From Escherichia phage vB_EcoM_EP57: DNA of 64,000 bases. The DNA lies in the sequence record OR544956, one strand, 5' to 3'. A program made the position numbers and the translations under genes. The notes under the pieces were generated by a model. That model did not search any database. It was not told where the DNA came from and saw only the letters and a program-made list of their open reading frames with translations. The stretch's first letter is position 1. The number at the start of each line of letters is the position of its first letter. Positions 21,783 through 63,178 of this stretch are shown piece by piece.

Positions 21783-22192
21783 CTATAGATCAAGTATTAT
21801 TTATAATAATTTATTATTTTATTTTTAATTGATAGAAGTTGATCTGTACGTACCAGTTCTGATACACTGTACCTGTTTGTTAGATCTAATAATTATTTAT
21901 TATTAATATTTAATAATTATTAATCTAGTACGGAGTACAGTACTTGAGTACAGAGTACTACATCAACGACCTAAAACCTTAACTCGCTGCGCTCGTTAAT
22001 AGATTTCTAGGGTAACATACTTCGAACACAAAAGTCAAGAGTTTTATTAAAAATTATTTTCTGTGTGCAAAAACCTTGCTTAAACAGGTAGCAATAGTAT
22101 TAAGAGGCTGTAGAGCAAGTTTACTTACTAGGTAAGGTGATTTATCATCTTATATATAAAAAGTGCGTCAGAGACGCGTTTAGGAGGCTAGA

Positions 22193-50394: not shown

Positions 50395-51047
50395 TGTCAA
50401 ATTCAAAACCAGTAGTTGCTTATCAAGTAGATCGTAATGATGGTGAAGGAAGTGTTGTTATTTTCAGTACACACGGTCTTGAGGCTCGTCGAAAAGGTGC
50501 ATATCGTTTAGAATGTGAGTTTGAAGACTGCACAAGCCACCGTGTCAAACAATTCGATCAATATGCTGATAAAGGCTTCGTCCCTGTCAAAGCCTTACTG
50601 GAAGATGGTTGGTGGGTATATTCTGCTTTTGATTACTCAAGACTGGAGGAGTCAGCTTCGTGCGCCTCCGAGATCGAATATGATGATTACTATGACACTC
50701 TGTACCTTCCAGAATGGCTTGTCTTTTCTCCTGATGAAAAAAGTGTCTGGAAAACGTGGGAAGAAATGGAGAGACATGCGTATAGCATCAATGAAGCTTT
50801 AGATCGTAAAGCTTGGTTTATTGAGGCAGTAAAGGCGGCATACCCCCAATTCTCATTCTGTGATTTCACTGGTGGCCCAGGATACATTACACATACAGCC
50901 TCTTTTGAGTTTCCTGGTTCACGTTATAAGGGTAATGTTTATTGGGACTGGGATGAAAATAAACAACCTTCGGCTCAAGACTTCCGTTGCTATGTTTGTC
51001 AAGGTGATCAAGAAGCCCTTGACAAATACCTTGAAAGTCTGGTATAG
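50394..51047 (+). CDS. hypothetical protein
   Basis: ORF track 217 aa. Confidence 0.35.
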   Translation: MSNSKPVVAYQVDRNDGEGSVVIFSTHGLEARRKGAYRLECEFEDCTSHRVKQFDQYADKGFVPVKALLEDGWWVYSAFDYSRLEESASCASEIEYDDYYDTLYLPEWLVFSPDEKSVWKTWEEMERHAYSINEALDRKAWFIEAVKAAYPQFSFCDFTGGPGYITHTASFEFPGSRYKGNVYWDWDENKQPSAQDFRCYVCQGDQEALDKYLESLV

Positions 51048-51409
51048 TGCCGATATCTGAACAAAGCCTCCTGTTTCAGGGGGCTTTTCTTTTATAGGAG
51101 GGAATATGTTTCAATGCACATTGGTTGGTGAGCAAACTAAAAGAAAAAGAGAAACCATTTCCTACTCTGCTTGATCGTTCTCTTGTGGAAGATGCAGGTA
51201 AAGCATATGCAGACTATGCGTATGCAGACGGGAAATATTTGGAAGATGATAAGGCTAACCATTTGCTTTATGTTTACTATGAAGCTGAATCTGCCTACGA
51301 TAATTATTACAGCATGTCTAACATCCTACGTCTGTTTGCAGAGTTTGATATTTATTAAACAAATAAACCACTCAAGGGGCTTCGGCCCCTTTCTTATTAG
51401 GAGAATAAA

Positions 51410-51643
51410 ATGACTGAAGAAATCCGTGATTACTACCTTGCACATTACGTTTACTACTTTGCCAATGCTACACAAAAAGGGGAAGGTAATCTTTACTTGG
51501 CAACAGGACATGGAACAGGCGTTAGGAAATCAGAAGATAAACTTCAAACACCTGTAGTTGTAGTGATGCAAAACATAAGTTACCTAGCAAGTTGTACTGA
51601 AACCGAATTTAACGCGTCTGAAACGCAATCTAACGAAGAATAA
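51410..51643 (+). CDS. hypothetical protein
   Basis: 77 aa; RBS AGGAGAA; last rightward gene. Confidence 0.35.
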   Translation: MTEEIRDYYLAHYVYYFANATQKGEGNLYLATGHGTGVRKSEDKLQTPVVVVMQNISYLASCTETEFNASETQSNEE

Positions 51644-51678
51644 AACAAAGGCACCCAAGTGGGTGCCTTTTCTATTTT
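51642..51678. terminator. bidirectional terminator between converging gene blocks
   Basis: ggcaccc-aagt-gggtgcc flanked by A-run and T-run. Confidence 0.5.
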
Positions 51679-51712
51679 AGAGCGTCTCTGTTCGATTTAG
51701 GTGGGTTCTAGC

Positions 51713-51943
51713 TTACTTGTGTAGTGCTCTCTCGTATAACTCAATGATCAATTCATCCTCTACTGTAATACGCGCCATTTGATCCGTCTTAAGTATTGTT
51801 GGTTGGTAGTGGTGCATTTCACTATTGATAATACAATCCCATTCGTCATAACCTAAATACTCTCCTACATGGACCTTAACCATAAAGGGAAACGGGTTAT
51901 CTACCAAAAATGCCATACAACCTTCTTCGATTTTATTTAACAC
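51713..51943 (-). CDS. hypothetical protein
   Basis: ORF track 76 aa. Confidence 0.3.
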   Translation of the reverse strand: MLNKIEEGCMAFLVDNPFPFMVKVHVGEYLGYDEWDCIINSEMHHYQPTILKTDQMARITVEDELIIELYERALHK

Positions 51944-51967
51944 ACGACCTCCTATTGCTACAGATAT

Positions 51968-51990
51968 GAAAAAACCCGCCGAAGCGGGTT
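51968..51990 (-). terminator. rho-independent terminator
   Basis: cccgc-cgaa-gcggg followed on minus strand by TTTTTTC. Confidence 0.45.
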
Positions 51991-52034
51991 CTATTGCTAC
52001 GATAGGATCACTATCCTATAGTATTGTTTCTGTG

Positions 52035-55873: not shown

Positions 55874-56077
55874 TTACTCATTTCTACCTCCTTCAATGCT
55901 TTGTGCCGTACCATCCCAAGCCATTAGAATATTTGCCAATAGCTCACGAGGCTCTTTAAACCAAACTTCCATTTCATCAAGGATCTCGTCCGTGTCGTAA
56001 GTATAACCTGGAACACCAAGTTCACATTTCTTAAGATAGCTTTCTAACCAGCGGTGATAATTCTTAACCCCATTCAT
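55874..56077 (-). CDS. hypothetical protein
   Basis: ORF track 67 aa. Confidence 0.25.
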   Translation of the reverse strand: MNGVKNYHRWLESYLKKCELGVPGYTYDTDEILDEMEVWFKEPRELLANILMAWDGTAQSIEGGRNE

Positions 56078-56450
56078 ACTGTGCTACCTTTTCTTTTACC
56101 CAATCTACACGATCTTTATCATAATGTTGAGTGCCAAGGAAAAGACCATTGTGGAAACTTTCCTCACCGAAAGGATAAATTGGATCTAAACCATCTTCTT
56201 CAAACAACATTTTTAATCTGTTTGATGTAGATTTCTTAGTTTCTGAATTGTAGTTTGTGGTTATAAGCCAATCTTCCAAACAACGACACAAGCCTTGACG
56301 AGAATCCCAAGGAAAAACACAATCTCCGACAGGAGCTTGTTCCGCCCATTTCAACCAACCTTTAAAAAAGTTATACAATATGTAGTCTTCAGTGTAATAC
56401 ATTAGCGCCTCCTTTACATATACAATAACACCCCGCAGAACGGGGTGCAA
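56064..56450 (-). CDS. family-A paralog 1 (GLC...PF...R-V-x-W-V-K motif family)
   Basis: 128 aa; shares GLCRCL, YPFG and DRVDWVKEKV blocks with three other ORFs. Confidence 0.4.
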   Translation of the reverse strand: MHPVLRGVIVYVKEALMYYTEDYILYNFFKGWLKWAEQAPVGDCVFPWDSRQGLCRCLEDWLITTNYNSETKKSTSNRLKMLFEEDGLDPIYPFGEESFHNGLFLGTQHYDKDRVDWVKEKVAQYEWG

Positions 56451-56453
56451 CTG

Positions 56454-57065
56454 TTATTTAATCTGTTTGAAAATTTCGTTTGGAACAGTACCGTTTAAAA
56501 TACCTTCTACGATCTCCTGTGCAGACGTGTAAGAGAGTCCAAAAGAAGCTACGCCTAAAATTGCCTCCTTCAAAGGATCTGGCAGGGGTTCAAAGTTACC
56601 TGCAACAAAGCCACCTGCACAAGCAGCGCCTTCATCATCCCAGAAAACAACTGCTACATCGTTACCATGCGAAGTCGTGCGATGTGCAATAACTTCAACT
56701 TCGGTGCCTTCTTTAGGAACAGAATAAGAACTGTCCCAAGAATATCTTTCCAAATCAGGAACAAAGATAACCTTTTCACCTACTGGCGGCAGTTCACAAC
56801 GATAATACCAAGAATTTTTTTCGTTCATTGTTTTATTTTCCTCCACGTCTTCAAAAGTAACGATCCAATCGTAGCCGTAAGAAAACGGATATTTTAGATC
56901 TAAAGAATAAGTTTGACCCAGATCGTCCTCAACAAGAACCATCCTATCAAAGTTTGCGATGTTAGGATTATGTTTAATGACAGGGTATGTTTCCCCTACA
57001 GTAAATTGTCCCAAATGGTAAAGTTCATCTCTCCAAGTAATTTGGATATGAGTGCATTGAATCAT
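56454..57065 (-). CDS. hypothetical protein
   Basis: ORF track 203 aa. Confidence 0.35.
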   Translation of the reverse strand: MIQCTHIQITWRDELYHLGQFTVGETYPVIKHNPNIANFDRMVLVEDDLGQTYSLDLKYPFSYGYDWIVTFEDVEENKTMNEKNSWYYRCELPPVGEKVIFVPDLERYSWDSSYSVPKEGTEVEVIAHRTTSHGNDVAVVFWDDEGAACAGGFVAGNFEPLPDPLKEAILGVASFGLSYTSAQEIVEGILNGTVPNEIFKQIK

Positions 57066-57069
57066 AAAA

Positions 57070-57342
57070 TCACCCCCAAGAAATATTTATATATCTTACA
57101 ATGTTTGCACTGTCTAAAGCCATGTTTGCACCACACCCACGCTCGCGCCAGTAACTAACAATACCTTCACAGATACTCTCTTGTATCTTCTTATCACTTG
57201 GCATTTCTAGTATAAGACTTGGGTTATGGATGTTTATGTTATAATATCCTTCCTCTGCGGCTTGAGCTACCAATTTACTTACTTTTTCAAAGTACGGGGA
57301 ATTAGTGGCATCTGCTATTGTTTTTAAGGTTTGTCTATCCAT
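57070..57342 (-). CDS. hypothetical protein
   Basis: ORF track 90 aa. Confidence 0.3.
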   Translation of the reverse strand: MDRQTLKTIADATNSPYFEKVSKLVAQAAEEGYYNINIHNPSLILEMPSDKKIQESICEGIVSYWRERGCGANMALDSANIVRYINISWG

Positions 57343-57740
57343 TATTCTGCCTCATCATAGAAGAAATCCAACTCTTGTTCCAGTTGTTTAACTCGATCCT
57401 TAACCCACTGTACACGTTTTTCATTAAACATGCAACGTTTTTCCTTACACTCTTGCTCAAAAGATTTTGCTGTGTTAAATGGGAAAGTTGTATCTAAGCC
57501 AGCGTTTTCAAAACTGGCTAATTGCATACCATAAACAGAATATGCTAAAGAATGCTCGGCCCGAAATTCATCACTTATATACATACGTAGACCTCGGCAT
57601 AAGCCAACATCAGCGTAACCACTTTCTCTTGGAAAGAGACGGAGGTGTTCTAACCAATTATTATAAAAATCTAAAAGAATCCTCTTACACTTCAAATCGA
57701 TTGTCATAAAAAGTTTCTCCTTCATCGAACAAGTTGGCAA
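57342..57740 (-). CDS. family-A paralog 2
   Basis: 132 aa; GLCRGL, FPFN, KRVQWVKDRV blocks. Confidence 0.4.
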   Translation of the reverse strand: MPTCSMKEKLFMTIDLKCKRILLDFYNNWLEHLRLFPRESGYADVGLCRGLRMYISDEFRAEHSLAYSVYGMQLASFENAGLDTTFPFNTAKSFEQECKEKRCMFNEKRVQWVKDRVKQLEQELDFFYDEAE

Positions 57741-58026
57741 GATTGTTCACGGCAATCTGGGTGGAAAGAAGACAACTGTTTGCAGACACATAAGCACGAG
57801 CTATTTTGTAAACATAAACTTTCGTATTACAATTGTCTAGGATCGGAAGACTTTCGTCGATAGCATCTATAACACTAAACATCACATCTAAAACTTTAAT
57901 GGTGAGTGTTGTATTTGTATCTTCGTAACCTTTTTCAATCCGACCTGAATAGAAAGCATAGTCCTCAACAGTTCGTCGTTTAAACTGGCGCATAAAATCG
58001 GAACCATCTGTAGCAGAATTGAACAA
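57685..58026 (-). CDS. hypothetical protein
   Basis: ORF track 113 aa. Confidence 0.3.
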   Translation of the reverse strand: MFNSATDGSDFMRQFKRRTVEDYAFYSGRIEKGYEDTNTTLTIKVLDVMFSVIDAIDESLPILDNCNTKVYVYKIARAYVSANSCLLSTQIAVNNLANLFDEGETFYDNRFEV

Positions 58027-58114
58027 ATTTTCAAAAAATACGTCCCATCCGGCAAAAGGGCTGACAGCATGATTAAGTGATCTACAGATTCATTTTCTTG
58101 TTTCATATCCTCTC

Positions 58115-58792
58115 CTATTTAATGTTCAGTCTGGCACACAAACGGGAAACAGTTTTAGCATCCCATTTACCACCACGTGCTGTTGCTATTTTCTTACTAT
58201 TGAATTTTTCAGCAATAGTTTTGTAAGGTGTATTTAAATCTCTAAGGATCTCCAAGCGTTCACGGAATGTCTCTGCAAAAGCGTCTGCTTTAACAGAATT
58301 GTATTCCATTTTTCCTTTTCTACGTGCAGCGGCAGTTTTAGGATTAGCACTGCCTAATAAAACACCTTTACTTTTTGCTACAGCAAGACCCTTTTTAATA
58401 CGATCAGCAATACCTCTAACTTCTTGTTCAGCCAGAACAGACAGAAGCTGTATAACCATTTTATCTGCGTCTGGCATAATGGCTATCTTAACATCGATCA
58501 TTTCTAGAAGAGTTGCTACGGAGGCGTTGTTACGACCCAAGCGGTCAACTTTAGCTACCAATAAAGTTGCTCCGGTAGCTTTACACATTTCAACCGCTTT
58601 AACCAGTTCCTTACGTTGCTTCCAATCGCCCTTACCCGAATAGTATTCAGAAAATTGACCAATAACTTCCGCATCAGGCACAGAGTCTAAGAAGTAACGG
58701 ATATCATTCTCTTGGCTCTCCATACCATATTGTGCCTCACCTTTTTTCTGTTTAGAAAGACGACTGTAAACAACAAACTTTTTCATAACCAC
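58115..58792 (-). CDS. serine recombinase (resolvase/invertase family)
   Basis: VYSRLSKQ catalytic-Ser region, VDRLGRN motif, C-terminal HTH; own TTGACA promoter upstream. Confidence 0.65.
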   Translation of the reverse strand: MVMKKFVVYSRLSKQKKGEAQYGMESQENDIRYFLDSVPDAEVIGQFSEYYSGKGDWKQRKELVKAVEMCKATGATLLVAKVDRLGRNNASVATLLEMIDVKIAIMPDADKMVIQLLSVLAEQEVRGIADRIKKGLAVAKSKGVLLGSANPKTAAARRKGKMEYNSVKADAFAETFRERLEILRDLNTPYKTIAEKFNSKKIATARGGKWDAKTVSRLCARLNIK

Positions 58793-58856
58793 TCCTAAAC
58801 TATTGCTGTATTCTCACTTTACAAAACGAATAAACACTTGTCAAGGTATTTATTAT

Positions 58857-59069
58857 TTACAGCCATTCTACTCTTAAGCAGTATTCCTCGACATGTTGTT
58901 TACGCTTGTTTTTGTCTATGTAAGTGTATTCAACAAATGTCCCAAGATAGTCCTTGTCTACATTGTGTGGGCTATTGATTGGACATTTAGTACGACAAAC
59001 CCGTTGCCACTGACGAAGAATTACGGCTTTGTTTTTAGGATCAAAGGGATGAGGGTAATGTACCTTCAT
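58857..59069 (-). CDS. hypothetical protein
   Basis: ORF track 70 aa. Confidence 0.3.
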   Translation of the reverse strand: MKVHYPHPFDPKNKAVILRQWQRVCRTKCPINSPHNVDKDYLGTFVEYTYIDKNKRKQHVEEYCLRVEWL

Positions 59070-59393
59070 TCACGCCTCCTGTTTTAGTCGAAAAATATTT
59101 TGAATAACTAGAGATGTATAGTTATCACCTAGTCCCATAAGTTCTACTTCCAAGTTTCGAATATCCTCCACCGTAGGAGGATATGTTGGTAAAAATGCTT
59201 GAGCATTACCAGATCCAACTTCATTGCTGTAAGCAGTTGTAAAATTGTAAGATACAAAACATGAAACACCTTTTTGTCGGTACCCGATTAATCGACGAAT
59301 ACACCAGATAAGAGCCAAACCTATGAGAACACCTCCTAAACCAGCTAACAAGAAGGATAAGTTCATAATAGCTTCGTTAACAACTGCTTCCAT
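59070..59393 (-). CDS. small membrane protein
   Basis: 107 aa; N-terminal TM helix LSFLLAGLGGVLIGLALIW. Confidence 0.35.
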   Translation of the reverse strand: MEAVVNEAIMNLSFLLAGLGGVLIGLALIWCIRRLIGYRQKGVSCFVSYNFTTAYSNEVGSGNAQAFLPTYPPTVEDIRNLEVELMGLGDNYTSLVIQNIFRLKQEA

Positions 59394-59403
59394 TCTTTTC
59401 TCC

Positions 59404-59703
59404 TTAGTTATGTAAACCCAAATGTGCTACAACTTCTCTACGATAAGACAACTGCATAGCGATTTTATAGCCAGGATGAAAACCATTTACATCAATGTCA
59501 TCAAACCAAATCTCAAACGAACCGTGCTTAAGAGTCATTAAGTTGATATACCATTCGATAATATAATGATCGTCAGCAATACCTTCGATGTAAAATTCTC
59601 GGCAACAGTGAGATAGGTCTTCACTCGTTTCACGTTTCCAGTCTTTGATAGCACCCTTCTCTTTGGCTTTATTCAGAATCTGGATCAGGTCTTCAACTTG
59701 CAT
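59404..59703 (-). CDS. hypothetical protein
   Basis: ORF track 99 aa. Confidence 0.35.
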   Translation of the reverse strand: MQVEDLIQILNKAKEKGAIKDWKRETSEDLSHCCREFYIEGIADDHYIIEWYINLMTLKHGSFEIWFDDIDVNGFHPGYKIAMQLSYRREVVAHLGLHN

Positions 59704-59756
59704 TTTCTCTCCTTTTGTGGTTAATCTTTATATTTTAAATATTGCACCGTTTTCTG

Positions 59757-60170
59757 TCAAATAGCCTCTTTCTCTAAAACAACTCTTTGGATCACAACAT
59801 CTTCAATGTTTGCCAAACAATGACCCAAAGTCAATCCCGCCTTGAAAGGTGCTTGTAGCTTGGATTCGGCTTCTACGCGAACAGAATGTTCCGCTCCGCA
59901 CATGGTGTAATCTACACGGTAAACGTTTAAACCTAAGAACATAGATTCTTCTTCTTCACAACAAGGATTGAGTTCAGCCCAGTCCCAAGCATCTCCTTCT
60001 AAAGCAAATGGAGTGTTGTAATTGAAGAAAGTGCAGCGCGGATATTCCCCGTTGAAAGAATCTTTCAGCAGAATATATTTCTTACCGTTTGCATGGAAGA
60101 GTTCTCCTTTGATAACCTTACCTACAAGGATATCACTGTTAGTGGAACGGGTGCAAATAAACTTTTTCAT
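59757..60170 (-). CDS. hypothetical protein
   Basis: ORF track 137 aa. Confidence 0.35.
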   Translation of the reverse strand: MKKFICTRSTNSDILVGKVIKGELFHANGKKYILLKDSFNGEYPRCTFFNYNTPFALEGDAWDWAELNPCCEEEESMFLGLNVYRVDYTMCGAEHSVRVEAESKLQAPFKAGLTLGHCLANIEDVVIQRVVLEKEAI

Positions 60171-60224
60171 GATTTTCTCCTCTTTGTTTCGATGAGATGA
60201 TTATGACAAAGACAGATCCTTCTG

Positions 60225-60551
60225 TCAACTATTTATTTCTTCTGCTACACGTTCTTTTACCCAGTTCACACGATCCACATTCAAATGACAACGGCTTTTT
60301 TCCGCTTCTAAGGTGTACTTTCCAAAATTACTGTTGAAAGGCAACACCATAACCAAATCTTTGTGGTAGAACTGCTCATGCATTTCATCCAGTACGGGTT
60401 CGTATCGTTCGCTTTCACCCATATCGTAAAAATCATAGAGGTTCGAGCACAAACCTGTGCAACGGGTGAACGGTTCGCCTTCAGGAGCACCAGCTTCCAA
60501 CCATGCCAAATACGTGCGGTAAAATGTTAATAGTTCTTCGCTCATTTCCAC
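60225..60551 (-). CDS. family-A paralog 3
   Basis: 108 aa; YLAWLEAGAP, GLCSNL, LPFN, CHLNVDRVNWVKERVAEE. Confidence 0.45.
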   Translation of the reverse strand: MEMSEELLTFYRTYLAWLEAGAPEGEPFTRCTGLCSNLYDFYDMGESERYEPVLDEMHEQFYHKDLVMVLPFNSNFGKYTLEAEKSRCHLNVDRVNWVKERVAEEINS

Positions 60552-60760
60552 TCTCCTTCATGATAGTAAACCTCAAAAGAATAGTAAGTGAACATGCTCA
60601 TTGTAACACCTGCCATTTCTGGATCAACGGAAGTGTTGTTATACATGTCAACTACTGCCTGACCCGCTGCTTTGGCATGTGCTGCCGAATCACAAGCACA
60701 AACATCTTTCTCCCACGGAAACTTGCCATCATACTTAAGACGCACAATCCACATGATCAT
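60542..60760 (-). CDS. hypothetical protein
   Basis: ORF track 72 aa. Confidence 0.3.
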   Translation of the reverse strand: MIMWIVRLKYDGKFPWEKDVCACDSAAHAKAAGQAVVDMYNNTSVDPEMAGVTMSMFTYYSFEVYYHEGEWK

Positions 60761-60984
60761 TCTTCCATCTCAAACCATTCAGGGAACACTTTGCGGAAGA
60801 CCCGCGTGTTTTCTAAGAGAAATTCCAACTCTTTTTCCAAATCTGCGTTCCAACCGTTTATTTTAACACGGATTGCCAATGCACTTGCACGGCGACTCAA
60901 TTCTTGACAGATTGGATCACGCAGAACTATTGAGTCATAAAACTGACAAACAGCCTCAAGTTCATACCAGTTATAATCCGACAT
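60757..60984 (-). CDS. hypothetical protein
   Basis: ORF track 75 aa. Confidence 0.3.
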   Translation of the reverse strand: MSDYNWYELEAVCQFYDSIVLRDPICQELSRRASALAIRVKINGWNADLEKELEFLLENTRVFRKVFPEWFEMEE

Positions 60985-61310
60985 TATTCATCCTCCTCTG
61001 CAATACGATCTCTTACCCAATTAATCCTGTCCACATTCAGGTGACATACCTCTGCATCTGATTCTAAGACATATGCATCGTAGTTCTCATTGAAGGGTAA
61101 TTCTTGACTCAACCCTTTGTAGTAAAACTGTGCGTGCATTTCATCTGACAAGGTTGTTATAAGGGGATTGTAGCCATCCGCGTGCACATAGTCGAATAAG
61201 TTGGCACACAAACCGCAATCCCGCCGAAAAGGTTTACCATCAGGAGCACCAACATCAATCCATGCTAGATAAATTTTATAAAACTTCATCAACCTTGCGC
61301 TTGTTTTCAT
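60984..61310 (-). CDS. family-A paralog 4
   Basis: 108 aa; YLAWIDVGAP, GLCANL, LPFN, CHLNVDRINWVRDRIAEE; about half identical to paralog 3 by eye. Confidence 0.45.
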   Translation of the reverse strand: MKTSARLMKFYKIYLAWIDVGAPDGKPFRRDCGLCANLFDYVHADGYNPLITTLSDEMHAQFYYKGLSQELPFNENYDAYVLESDAEVCHLNVDRINWVRDRIAEEDE

Positions 61311-61548
61311 TTAGCCACCTCGTTAGTTTTTCTTGCTCTTTGTTTGCGCGTTCTAAGCTTCTGAACTTTAAACAGAGGGAACGAGAATCCCTACCCATGC
61401 ACAAGCTTTCATCTAAGCTGTGCTCCCCAACCAACCAAAGAGAGTATGTTTGAACATCTAACCCATAGTTTCTGTCTTTCCATAATCTCACCCCAAGAAC
61501 ATCAAAAGGAGCTTCCGCGACTAAAGAAAGAAACCGATCTTTATTCAT
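61276..61548 (-). CDS. hypothetical protein
   Basis: ORF track 90 aa. Confidence 0.3.
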   Translation of the reverse strand: MNKDRFLSLVAEAPFDVLGVRLWKDRNYGLDVQTYSLWLVGEHSLDESLCMGRDSRSLCLKFRSLERANKEQEKLTRWLNENKRKVDEVL

Positions 61549-61606
61549 ATTACACCACCTTGCTCACGTTGATAATGTATACCATACATAAAATAAATGT
61601 CAAGGC

Positions 61607-62779: not shown

Positions 62780-63178
62780 TTATCGTTGCGTACAATCAGC
62801 TTCTAGAGTAAGAACATTCGTTATTGTTTTATCATTTTTTAGAAATGCAAACCAAGCTAAAGTGTCTCGATACTCTGTGCGCATCATCACAACTTCAGTA
62901 GTGCCAATAAACTGTTGTGAACCATACATAGCACTACCATCTTTACTTTTTTCTCCTGTGTATTGCAGAATGCCACTCATCAAAGCACCACCTGAATTTT
63001 TAAGGATAAAGGAGTTATCTTTATTAATGACAACAGAAGCCATTTTCTTAGGACCAGAAATCACTTCACCTTTCAGATTTTTAACAACCACATCTGACAC
63101 ACACTCATAAACTTGAGACGCATTTGCTGTTCCGAGTGATGCAATGAGTAACAATAAACCTACGATGATCTTTTTCAT
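62780..63178 (-). CDS. secreted protein
   Basis: 132 aa with signal peptide MKKIIVGLLLLIASLGTANA. Confidence 0.4.
   Translation of the reverse strand: MKKIIVGLLLLIASLGTANASQVYECVSDVVVKNLKGEVISGPKKMASVVINKDNSFILKNSGGALMSGILQYTGEKSKDGSAMYGSQQFIGTTEVVMMRTEYRDTLAWFAFLKNDKTITNVLTLEADCTQR

Follow-up and report, generated by a model that had tools for sequence, protein, structure and literature searches.

The stretch of Escherichia phage vB_EcoM_EP57 considered here (sequence record OR544956; 64,000 nucleotides, hereafter the window) carries four related genes on the minus strand of a leftward small-gene block. They are named A, B, C and D, while copies outside the window are named E and F (and G in phage AV125). 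As judged from their sequences, the four genes are true diverged paralogues of a phage family that has already been catalogued. New here is that several PHROG bins and gp3 of coliphage N4 are united by profile comparison in a single superfamily that exceeds 2,000 sequence clusters. This family is widespread and phage-specific, and it is named N4 gp3-like here. It is tentatively proposed that its members are early, dispensable, host-directed accessory proteins with a shared functional centre around Cys33 and Arg92, and that their variable segments would set the specificity.

The paralogy had been put forward in the original prediction from a series of shared, ordered sequence blocks. The alignment suggested there as a check was run and bears it out: the four proteins align over their full length with significant pairwise scores. 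In pairwise BLASTP, C and D are 50% identical (E 4e-43), and all remaining pairs, aligned over 77-109 residues, are 29-31% identical (E 2e-9 to 1e-7). The Smith-Waterman scores of 80-312 compare with a shuffle mean of about 27 (standard deviation 5), corresponding to z = 10-59. A hidden Markov model (HMM) built from the four copies and run against the six-frame translation of the window retrieved these four alone (next E 0.14), and a self-BLAST of all open reading frames (ORFs) of the window revealed no other multi-copy small-gene family. As for the blocks themselves, all four proteins contain G-L-C-x-x-L, (L/Y/F)-P-F-(N/G) and R-(V/I)-x-W-V-(K/R). The proposed YLAW..GAP, however, is literal in C and D only: A reads WLKWAEQ-AP and B reads WLEHLRLFP. 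Likewise, the C-terminal block of A ends in EKV, not in ERV.

All four ORFs are found on the minus strand with the stop codons given originally. The start of D (61310) also stands, but those of A, B and C had been placed too far upstream (56450, 57740 and 60551). The corrected starts (56402, 57707 and 60545, Table 1) follow from the Shine-Dalgarno sequences, the annotation of phage ASO2A and a terminator hairpin that lies inside the ORF first read for A. The ATG of A has AAGGAGG 7 nt upstream and agrees with ASO2A_053 (339 nt), and the ATG of B, with AAGGAG upstream, agrees with ASO2A_050 (366 nt).

Table 1. Paralogues, further family copies and predicted transcription signals (window positions, unless TSP7_1 is named)
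Feature	Position	Strand	Details
Paralogue A	56064..56402	-	112 aa, pI 4.7; GLC, YPFG, RVDWVKEKV; Asn89 replaced by Asp
Paralogue B	57342..57707	-	121 aa, pI 5.3; GLC, FPFN, RVQWVKDRV; His87 replaced by Met
Paralogue C	60225..60545	-	106 aa, pI 4.6; final gene of the D-to-C transcription unit
Paralogue D	60984..61310	-	108 aa, pI 4.7
Further copy	TSP7_1 97809-98123		about 220 bp past the window end; found with the family HMM
Further copy	TSP7_1 94094-94468		outside the window; found with the family HMM
Sigma-70-like promoter (predicted)	61574..61603	-	TTGACA, 18 nt spacer, TACATT; 10/12 consensus matches
Putative transcription unit	61276-61548 / D / 60757-60984 / 60542-60760 / C	-	from promoter-like site 61603-61574 to hairpin 60226-60211
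Terminator-like hairpin	60226-60211, within 60200..60228	-	directly 3' of the C stop codon; terminator annotated there in ASO2A
Promoter-like site (predicted)	within 60200..60228	-	TTGACA, 17 nt spacer, TG-CATAAT; overlaps the hairpin; for the next unit
GC-rich terminator-like hairpin	56428..56448	-	9-bp stem, 6 GC pairs; between gene 56454-57065 and the start of A; annotated in ASO2A

Against the HMM of the whole family, A and B both give E 6e-22, C gives E 1e-36 and D gives E 5e-36. All four proteins match phrog_2510 at about 1e-26 to 1e-31 (A E 8e-27, B E 3e-26, C E 2e-31). Most of them also match phrog_6418 and phrog_27059, with C and D matching phrog_6418 strongly and phrog_2176 weakly. 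In the ASO2A annotation, A and D are assigned to the pVOG VOG7392. The four PHROGs are all listed as 'unknown function', and no Pfam, NCBIfam or PADLOC match was obtained for the four proteins, in keeping with the earlier statement that the family was not recognised. A Pfam scan of 60 diverse members gave nothing above noise and no recurrent weak family. A name for the family was found in none of these curated libraries.

When 1.84 billion representative proteins were searched exhaustively with HMMER, 2,028 clusters were retrieved at E<=1e-3, with 1,153 at E<=1e-10. Members are mostly 95-125 amino acids (aa) long. Tandem two-domain proteins make up a minority, and a single protein has three domains; the longer relatives are fused solely to other phage modules of unknown function, and one of them has an N-terminal membrane anchor. 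The source names of the matches are uniformly 'hypothetical protein', with no Pfam label. In the phage collection, 248 records carry the family, and the phage groups include Stephanstirmvirinae, Drexlerviridae, Schitoviridae and Autographiviridae. It is also found in phages of Rhizobium, Achromobacter, Ralstonia, Delftia, Burkholderia, Pectobacterium and Erwinia. The sole plasmid match is a phage-plasmid, and the two 'bacterial' occurrences that were looked at are prophage or phage contigs. Coliphage N4 gp3 (ABK54374.1) clearly belongs to the family, scoring 73 bits (E 1e-21) with its HMM, and gp8 of Erwinia phage Frozen was already labelled 'N4 gp3-like'.

About 60 phAPEC8-like phages (Phapecoctavirus, Stephanstirmvirinae; 150-kb E. 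coli myoviruses) share this region at 95-99.8% identity, and in their GenBank records these genes are annotated as hypothetical throughout. In the complete genome of TSP7_1 (MW175890.1, 99.8% identical), the family HMM detects six members within 12.2 kb on one strand. The original count of four is therefore right for the window but rises to six genome-wide, as read from this near-identical phage, because the window edge cuts the family block. Five copies are found in ESCO5, where C is absent, and seven in AV125, where the extra copy (G) is located beside F. By tblastn, up to eight matching places were detected in one related record. In Stephanstirmvirinae the family is expanded to five to eight old, diverged copies. 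The T7-like Klebsiella phage vB_KpP_GP-4 contains two copies, gp4 and gp6 (locus L006, 3081-3473 and 3762-4082), which are 26% identical, and the expansion is hence not confined to large myoviruses. In AV125, the seventh copy (locus L014, 21758-22111) shares a few codons with the beginning of F, and the two are 50% identical over the aligned positions.

The only fairly recent duplicates are the pairs C-D and F-G, each at 50% identity. A and B show 24-32% identity to their genome-mates and are equally far from homologues in unrelated phages, while E is 47% identical to Sf12 gp19 (Drexlerviridae) compared with at most 39% to any co-resident copy. These distances point to old subfamilies that were retained or horizontally exchanged, and not to a recent burst of duplication. 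The orthologues are under purifying selection. B has a ratio of nonsynonymous to synonymous polymorphism (pN/pS), pooled over orthologues in related phages, of 0.06, as compared with 0.14 in C, 0.27 in D and 0.03 in E. The ratio of A comes to about 0.06 against ESCO5 alone; the comparison of A with AV125 by substitution rates (dN/dS) was dropped as an indel had misaligned the sequences.

Some damaged variants are also on record. Protein P0013 of phage BI-EHEC is a frameshifted B in which the RxxWV motif is lost, and the metagenomic proteins P0015, P0016 and P0022 are frameshifted or truncated variants of C. Together with the loss of C in ESCO5, these variants fit dispensability. In TSP7_1, paralogue B is annotated merely as a 61-aa C-terminal fragment (104809-104994). 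Such frameshifted or fragmentary forms reflect errors in annotation or sequencing, or else genes that are occasionally inactivated in nature.

C was the sole window copy modelled with AlphaFold2, which predicted five helices with a mean local confidence (pLDDT) of 91.3 and a predicted template modelling score (pTM) of 0.84. Structural matches in BFVD, with template modelling (TM) scores of 0.73-0.86, are all uncharacterized phage proteins. No solved relative was found in the PDB by fold or by sequence-profile search; the profile searches, run with 4- and 60-sequence profiles, gave chance matches only (Prp8, E 0.43; phospholipase B-like, E 0.63). The model points to a small, acidic, cytoplasmic five-helix domain of about 100-120 aa that lacks a solved relative and is predicted to be a new fold. 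The isoelectric points of the family copies range from 4.5 to 5.4. In the natural tandem protein P0023, both domains show the helix pattern of C, but the model (pTM 0.60) does not fix their relative orientation with confidence. Tandem proteins of this kind hint at oligomers.

Conservation was assessed over 221 aligned domain instances. Cys33 is kept in 218 of the 219 full-length ones, Pro69 and Phe70 each in 218/219, and Arg92 in 216/217. These are followed by Phe8, Trp15, Gly31, Leu32 and Trp95 at 94-96%, Asn89 at 88% and His87 at 77%. The resulting signature is conserved at 94-99% and present in all of A-D: G-L-C marks the start of helix 2, P-F precedes helix 4 and R-x-x-W-V lies within helix 5. 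The model places Cys33 second in helix 2 (H32-41), with Gly31 before it. The conserved polar set also includes E54, Q58, H87 and N89, and the variable segments are residues 37-53 and 72-86. The near-invariant residues hold in phages of alpha-, beta- and gamma-proteobacteria.

A near-fixed Cys together with an equally fixed Arg is not easily explained by packing alone. In the reading that is preferred here, the putative shared centre would be made up of two loops, G19-A-P...P25-F-x-R28..G31-L-C33 and G63-L...P69-F70-N71, together with the start of helix 5, H87-x-N89-x-x-R92-x-x-W95. Located at the N-terminus of helix 2 and presumably beside Arg92, Cys33 may perform thiol chemistry, or it may coordinate a common ligand, cofactor or host hub. 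Each copy would owe its own specificity to the weakly conserved segments at about residues 37-53 and 72-86, which vary from paralogue to paralogue. The copies would be expressed early from host-type promoters and would act as dispensable accessory factors on the host cell, not in virion assembly or phage replication. The family would then combine one conserved 'business end' with several specificity variants, for host takeover or counter-defence. The original prediction, which is partly borne out, had likewise suggested host-interaction or anti-defence proteins, and it agrees with this that the genes appear dispensable and vary in copy number, that the paralogues are old and diverged and that a structural or replication role is absent.

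In the plain form of the original prediction, and by analogy with the Bcl-2-like multigene families of poxviruses, each paralogue might instead act independently as a stoichiometric inhibitor with a defence or housekeeping protein of the host as its own target, built on a shared helical scaffold whose conservation would be purely structural. This is a somewhat unlikely explanation, even though the proteins are small, acidic and helical and lie in small-gene blocks, the paralogues are old, diverged and variable in copy number, and many conserved positions belong to the hydrophobic core or to expected helix caps. Fusion solely to other accessory modules of unknown function also speaks for it. 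However, at a purely structural Cys some replacement by Ala, Ser or Val would be expected, which is at odds with the counts for Cys33 and, across very different hosts, for Arg92. The strong purifying selection (pN/pS of 0.03-0.14 in four copies) is also unlike that of arms-race surfaces. Taken together, the near-invariant Cys33, Pro69-Phe70 and Arg92 and this selection argue for one shared biochemical core and not for freely diverging inhibitors.

The same residues could belong to a new small thiol-dependent enzyme, in which Cys33 would be the nucleophile, activated by Arg92 (and by His87 and Asn89 where present), and a host molecule would be modified or cleaved. Targets could include an immune signal, a conjugate or a cofactor, and the copies lacking His would be inactive or only bind. 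The near-invariance of Cys and Arg, the position of Cys33 at the start of helix 2 after Gly31 and the polar set E54, Q58, H87 and N89 speak for such an enzyme, and broadly distributed phage counter-defence families are generally known to be often enzymes or ligand binders. It is nevertheless doubtful, as an all-helical domain of 100 residues is small for an enzyme, His87 is incompletely conserved, no enzyme fold or family is matched and an enzyme would not usually be present in five to eight copies per genome. That the domain is a very divergent HEPN-like RNase is hardly credible: the consensus R92-x6-H99 on the last helix resembles the HEPN Rx4-6H motif, but a conserved Rx4-6H on the C-terminal helix combined with profile or fold similarity to the superfamily was not found.

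Other known identities were considered and rejected. With the Fic/Doc motif HPFx[D/E]GN[G/K]R, the family shares P-F alone; the preceding residue is mostly Tyr, Leu or Phe (His in 9/221), GNGR is absent and there is no Pfam Fic match. The alpha+beta fold with an invariant triad that marks papain-like and other Cys-His-Asn(Asp) peptidases was not seen, nor was the helix-turn-helix with wing, basic surface or fold match of winged-helix (MarR-type) DNA-binding proteins. Among known anti-phage-defence and anti-defence families, neither a curated sequence model nor a solved fold was matched. A 99-aa anti-defence gene, bas54_0140, was newly reported in the V5-like phage Bas54 (preprint 10.1101/2025.11.20.689424). 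It is not a family member (E 4.9 against the family HMM, motifs absent), and the scanned 50-kb stretch of Bas54 contains no family members.

The genomic setting of the family bears on the timing of its expression. By position, N4 gp3 belongs to the early genes of N4 and follows immediately on gp1 and gp2, both cofactors of N4 RNA polymerase II (PMC4496689). In N4-like phages, the family gene is found in the leftmost block between the genes for gp2 and RNA polymerase II. The two copies of vB_KpP_GP-4 lie near the left end, about 1 kb upstream of the S-adenosylmethionine (SAM) hydrolase gene. In the T1-like phage Sf12 the gene stands among small genes adjoining replication genes, in one temperate phage it is two genes downstream of a CI-like repressor on the same strand, and in metagenomic phages the genes occur within long arrays of small unannotated genes. 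Overall, N4-like, T7-like, T1-like, phAPEC8-like and temperate phages all have the family in runs of small unannotated genes, and these runs are recognisably early in the first two. In the window, strong sigma-70-like promoter sites and terminators are spaced through the block. The 'early region' of the original prediction is a reasonable inference for the window, which draws on the position of N4 gp3, on the left-end positions and on the layout of promoters and terminators.

From this setting it could be argued that the family serves the programme of the phage itself, for example in its transcription, translation or replication, where the proteins would be cofactors or regulators. The place of N4 gp3 directly after two polymerase cofactors suggests this, as do the location among replication genes in some phages and the fact that it is one of the few early genes common to N4 and distant N4-like phages (PMC4496689 for the N4 gene order). 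Such a role is nonetheless rather improbable. The family spans phages whose transcription and replication systems are unrelated, close relatives have lost or frameshifted copies, the acidic isoelectric point speaks against nucleic-acid binding, and multiple diverged copies are hard to square with a housekeeping cofactor.

The proposal of early host-directed accessory proteins also has a number of points that weigh against it. Early timing in Phapecoctavirus is suggested by matches to promoter consensus sequences, and the promoter-like matches number 39 as opposed to 32 +/- 7 in shuffles, a total that is not above chance. No recurrent annotated neighbour was seen across nine independent contexts, and the phage groups compared have no adjacent gene in common. 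As for the putative centre, Ser2, Asn89, Gly63 and Pro69 stand at expected helix caps or turns in the model, and part of the conservation is probably structural. His87, conserved at 77% and missing in B, speaks against a universal Cys-His catalytic pair, and the tandem-fusion model, with its pTM of 0.60, does not support a fixed dimer. A known anti-defence family that matches by sequence or fold was likewise not found. Lastly, no published work on any family member was found in the literature on phrog_2510, N4 gp3, the anti-defence encyclopaedia EVADES, Stephanstirmvirinae and accessory-gene screens.

Regarding the transcription signals of the window (Table 1), the hairpin at 60200-60228 is palindromic, and thus terminator-like on both strands, and it overlaps the best sigma-70-like promoter of the region. 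As read from its sequence, this site is a compact terminator-promoter junction between two units. The sign of the GC skew changes near window positions 22000 and 51000-52000, from negative to positive and back to negative, and the change at about 51000-52000 fits the switch of the transcription strand that bounds the leftward small-gene block.

The neighbours in the window belong to unknown-function PHROGs, except for a serine recombinase of 225 aa at 58115-58792 on the minus strand (Pfam Resolvase, E 5e-18; phrog_125 'DNA invertase', E 1e-32), which is thus located in the small-gene block of a lytic myovirus. In several GenBank relatives this gene is named 'methionine ABC transporter ATP-binding protein', apparently an error copied from record to record. 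On the related metagenomic contig L017, a resolvase gene is likewise paired with a family member, about 2.7 kb away. Two further minus-strand neighbours, both in unknown-function PHROGs, look non-cytoplasmic: the 107-aa protein of 59070-59393 has an N-terminal hydrophobic segment, LSFLLAGLGGVLIGLALIWCI, and the 132-aa protein of 62780-63178 a signal-peptide-like start, MKKIIVGLLLLIASLGTANA. Outside the window, about 1.6 kb of TSP7_1 (~92476-94094) adjoining copy F are without annotated genes. In Bas54, a stretch of about 2 kb free of transposon insertions was reported where early blocks diverge (HIDEN-SEQ preprint), and the two may be comparable features.

Taken by themselves, the genes count as ordinary phage 'dark matter', already present in PHROG bins. 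With its signature and predicted fold now set, the family has become a well-defined and tractable target. It is conceivable, if improbable, that the domain is a hitherto unrecognised reactive-cysteine fold in which Cys33 is activated by Arg92, and that it captures, modifies or cleaves a host molecule that is itself conserved. Such a molecule could be, among others, a cofactor, an immune second messenger or a conjugate of the thioester or ubiquitin-like type, and the five to eight specificity variants per large phage would serve as a counter-defence toolkit. If true, this would be a new and very widespread class of phage effectors with a new chemistry. As N4 has a single copy and is genetically workable, a phenotype obtained there could annotate thousands of phage genes.

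Among known proteins, the nearest likeness is to N4 gp3 and the 'N4 gp3-like' proteins of Schitoviridae, which agree with the window copies in length, in the GLC, PF and RxxW motifs and in their early left-end gene block. N4, however, has one copy as opposed to six in this phage, and as gp3 has no assigned function, the likeness gives the family a name and a handle for experiments but does not point to a mechanism. In the PHROG catalogues the one superfamily is divided among several bins, where the paralogy, the invariant residues and the link to N4 gp3 are unrecorded. By analogy, and with no homology, the Bcl-2-like families of poxviruses also comprise several diverged copies of a small helical domain in non-essential gene blocks of one virus. 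The poxvirus copies bind different host signalling proteins. They have almost no invariant residues, whereas here the Cys, Arg, Pro-Phe and Trp are kept in all copies. A second analogy is provided by phage signal 'sponges' and small counter-defence proteins of solved structure, such as Acb2, Tad1, Tad2 and others, which are likewise small and soluble, spread over unrelated phages and equipped with conserved polar positions that suggest a common ligand. To our knowledge, families of this type are usually single-copy and have no invariant cysteine. Their fold and sequence are also unlike those of the N4 gp3-like proteins, which match no PDB entry.

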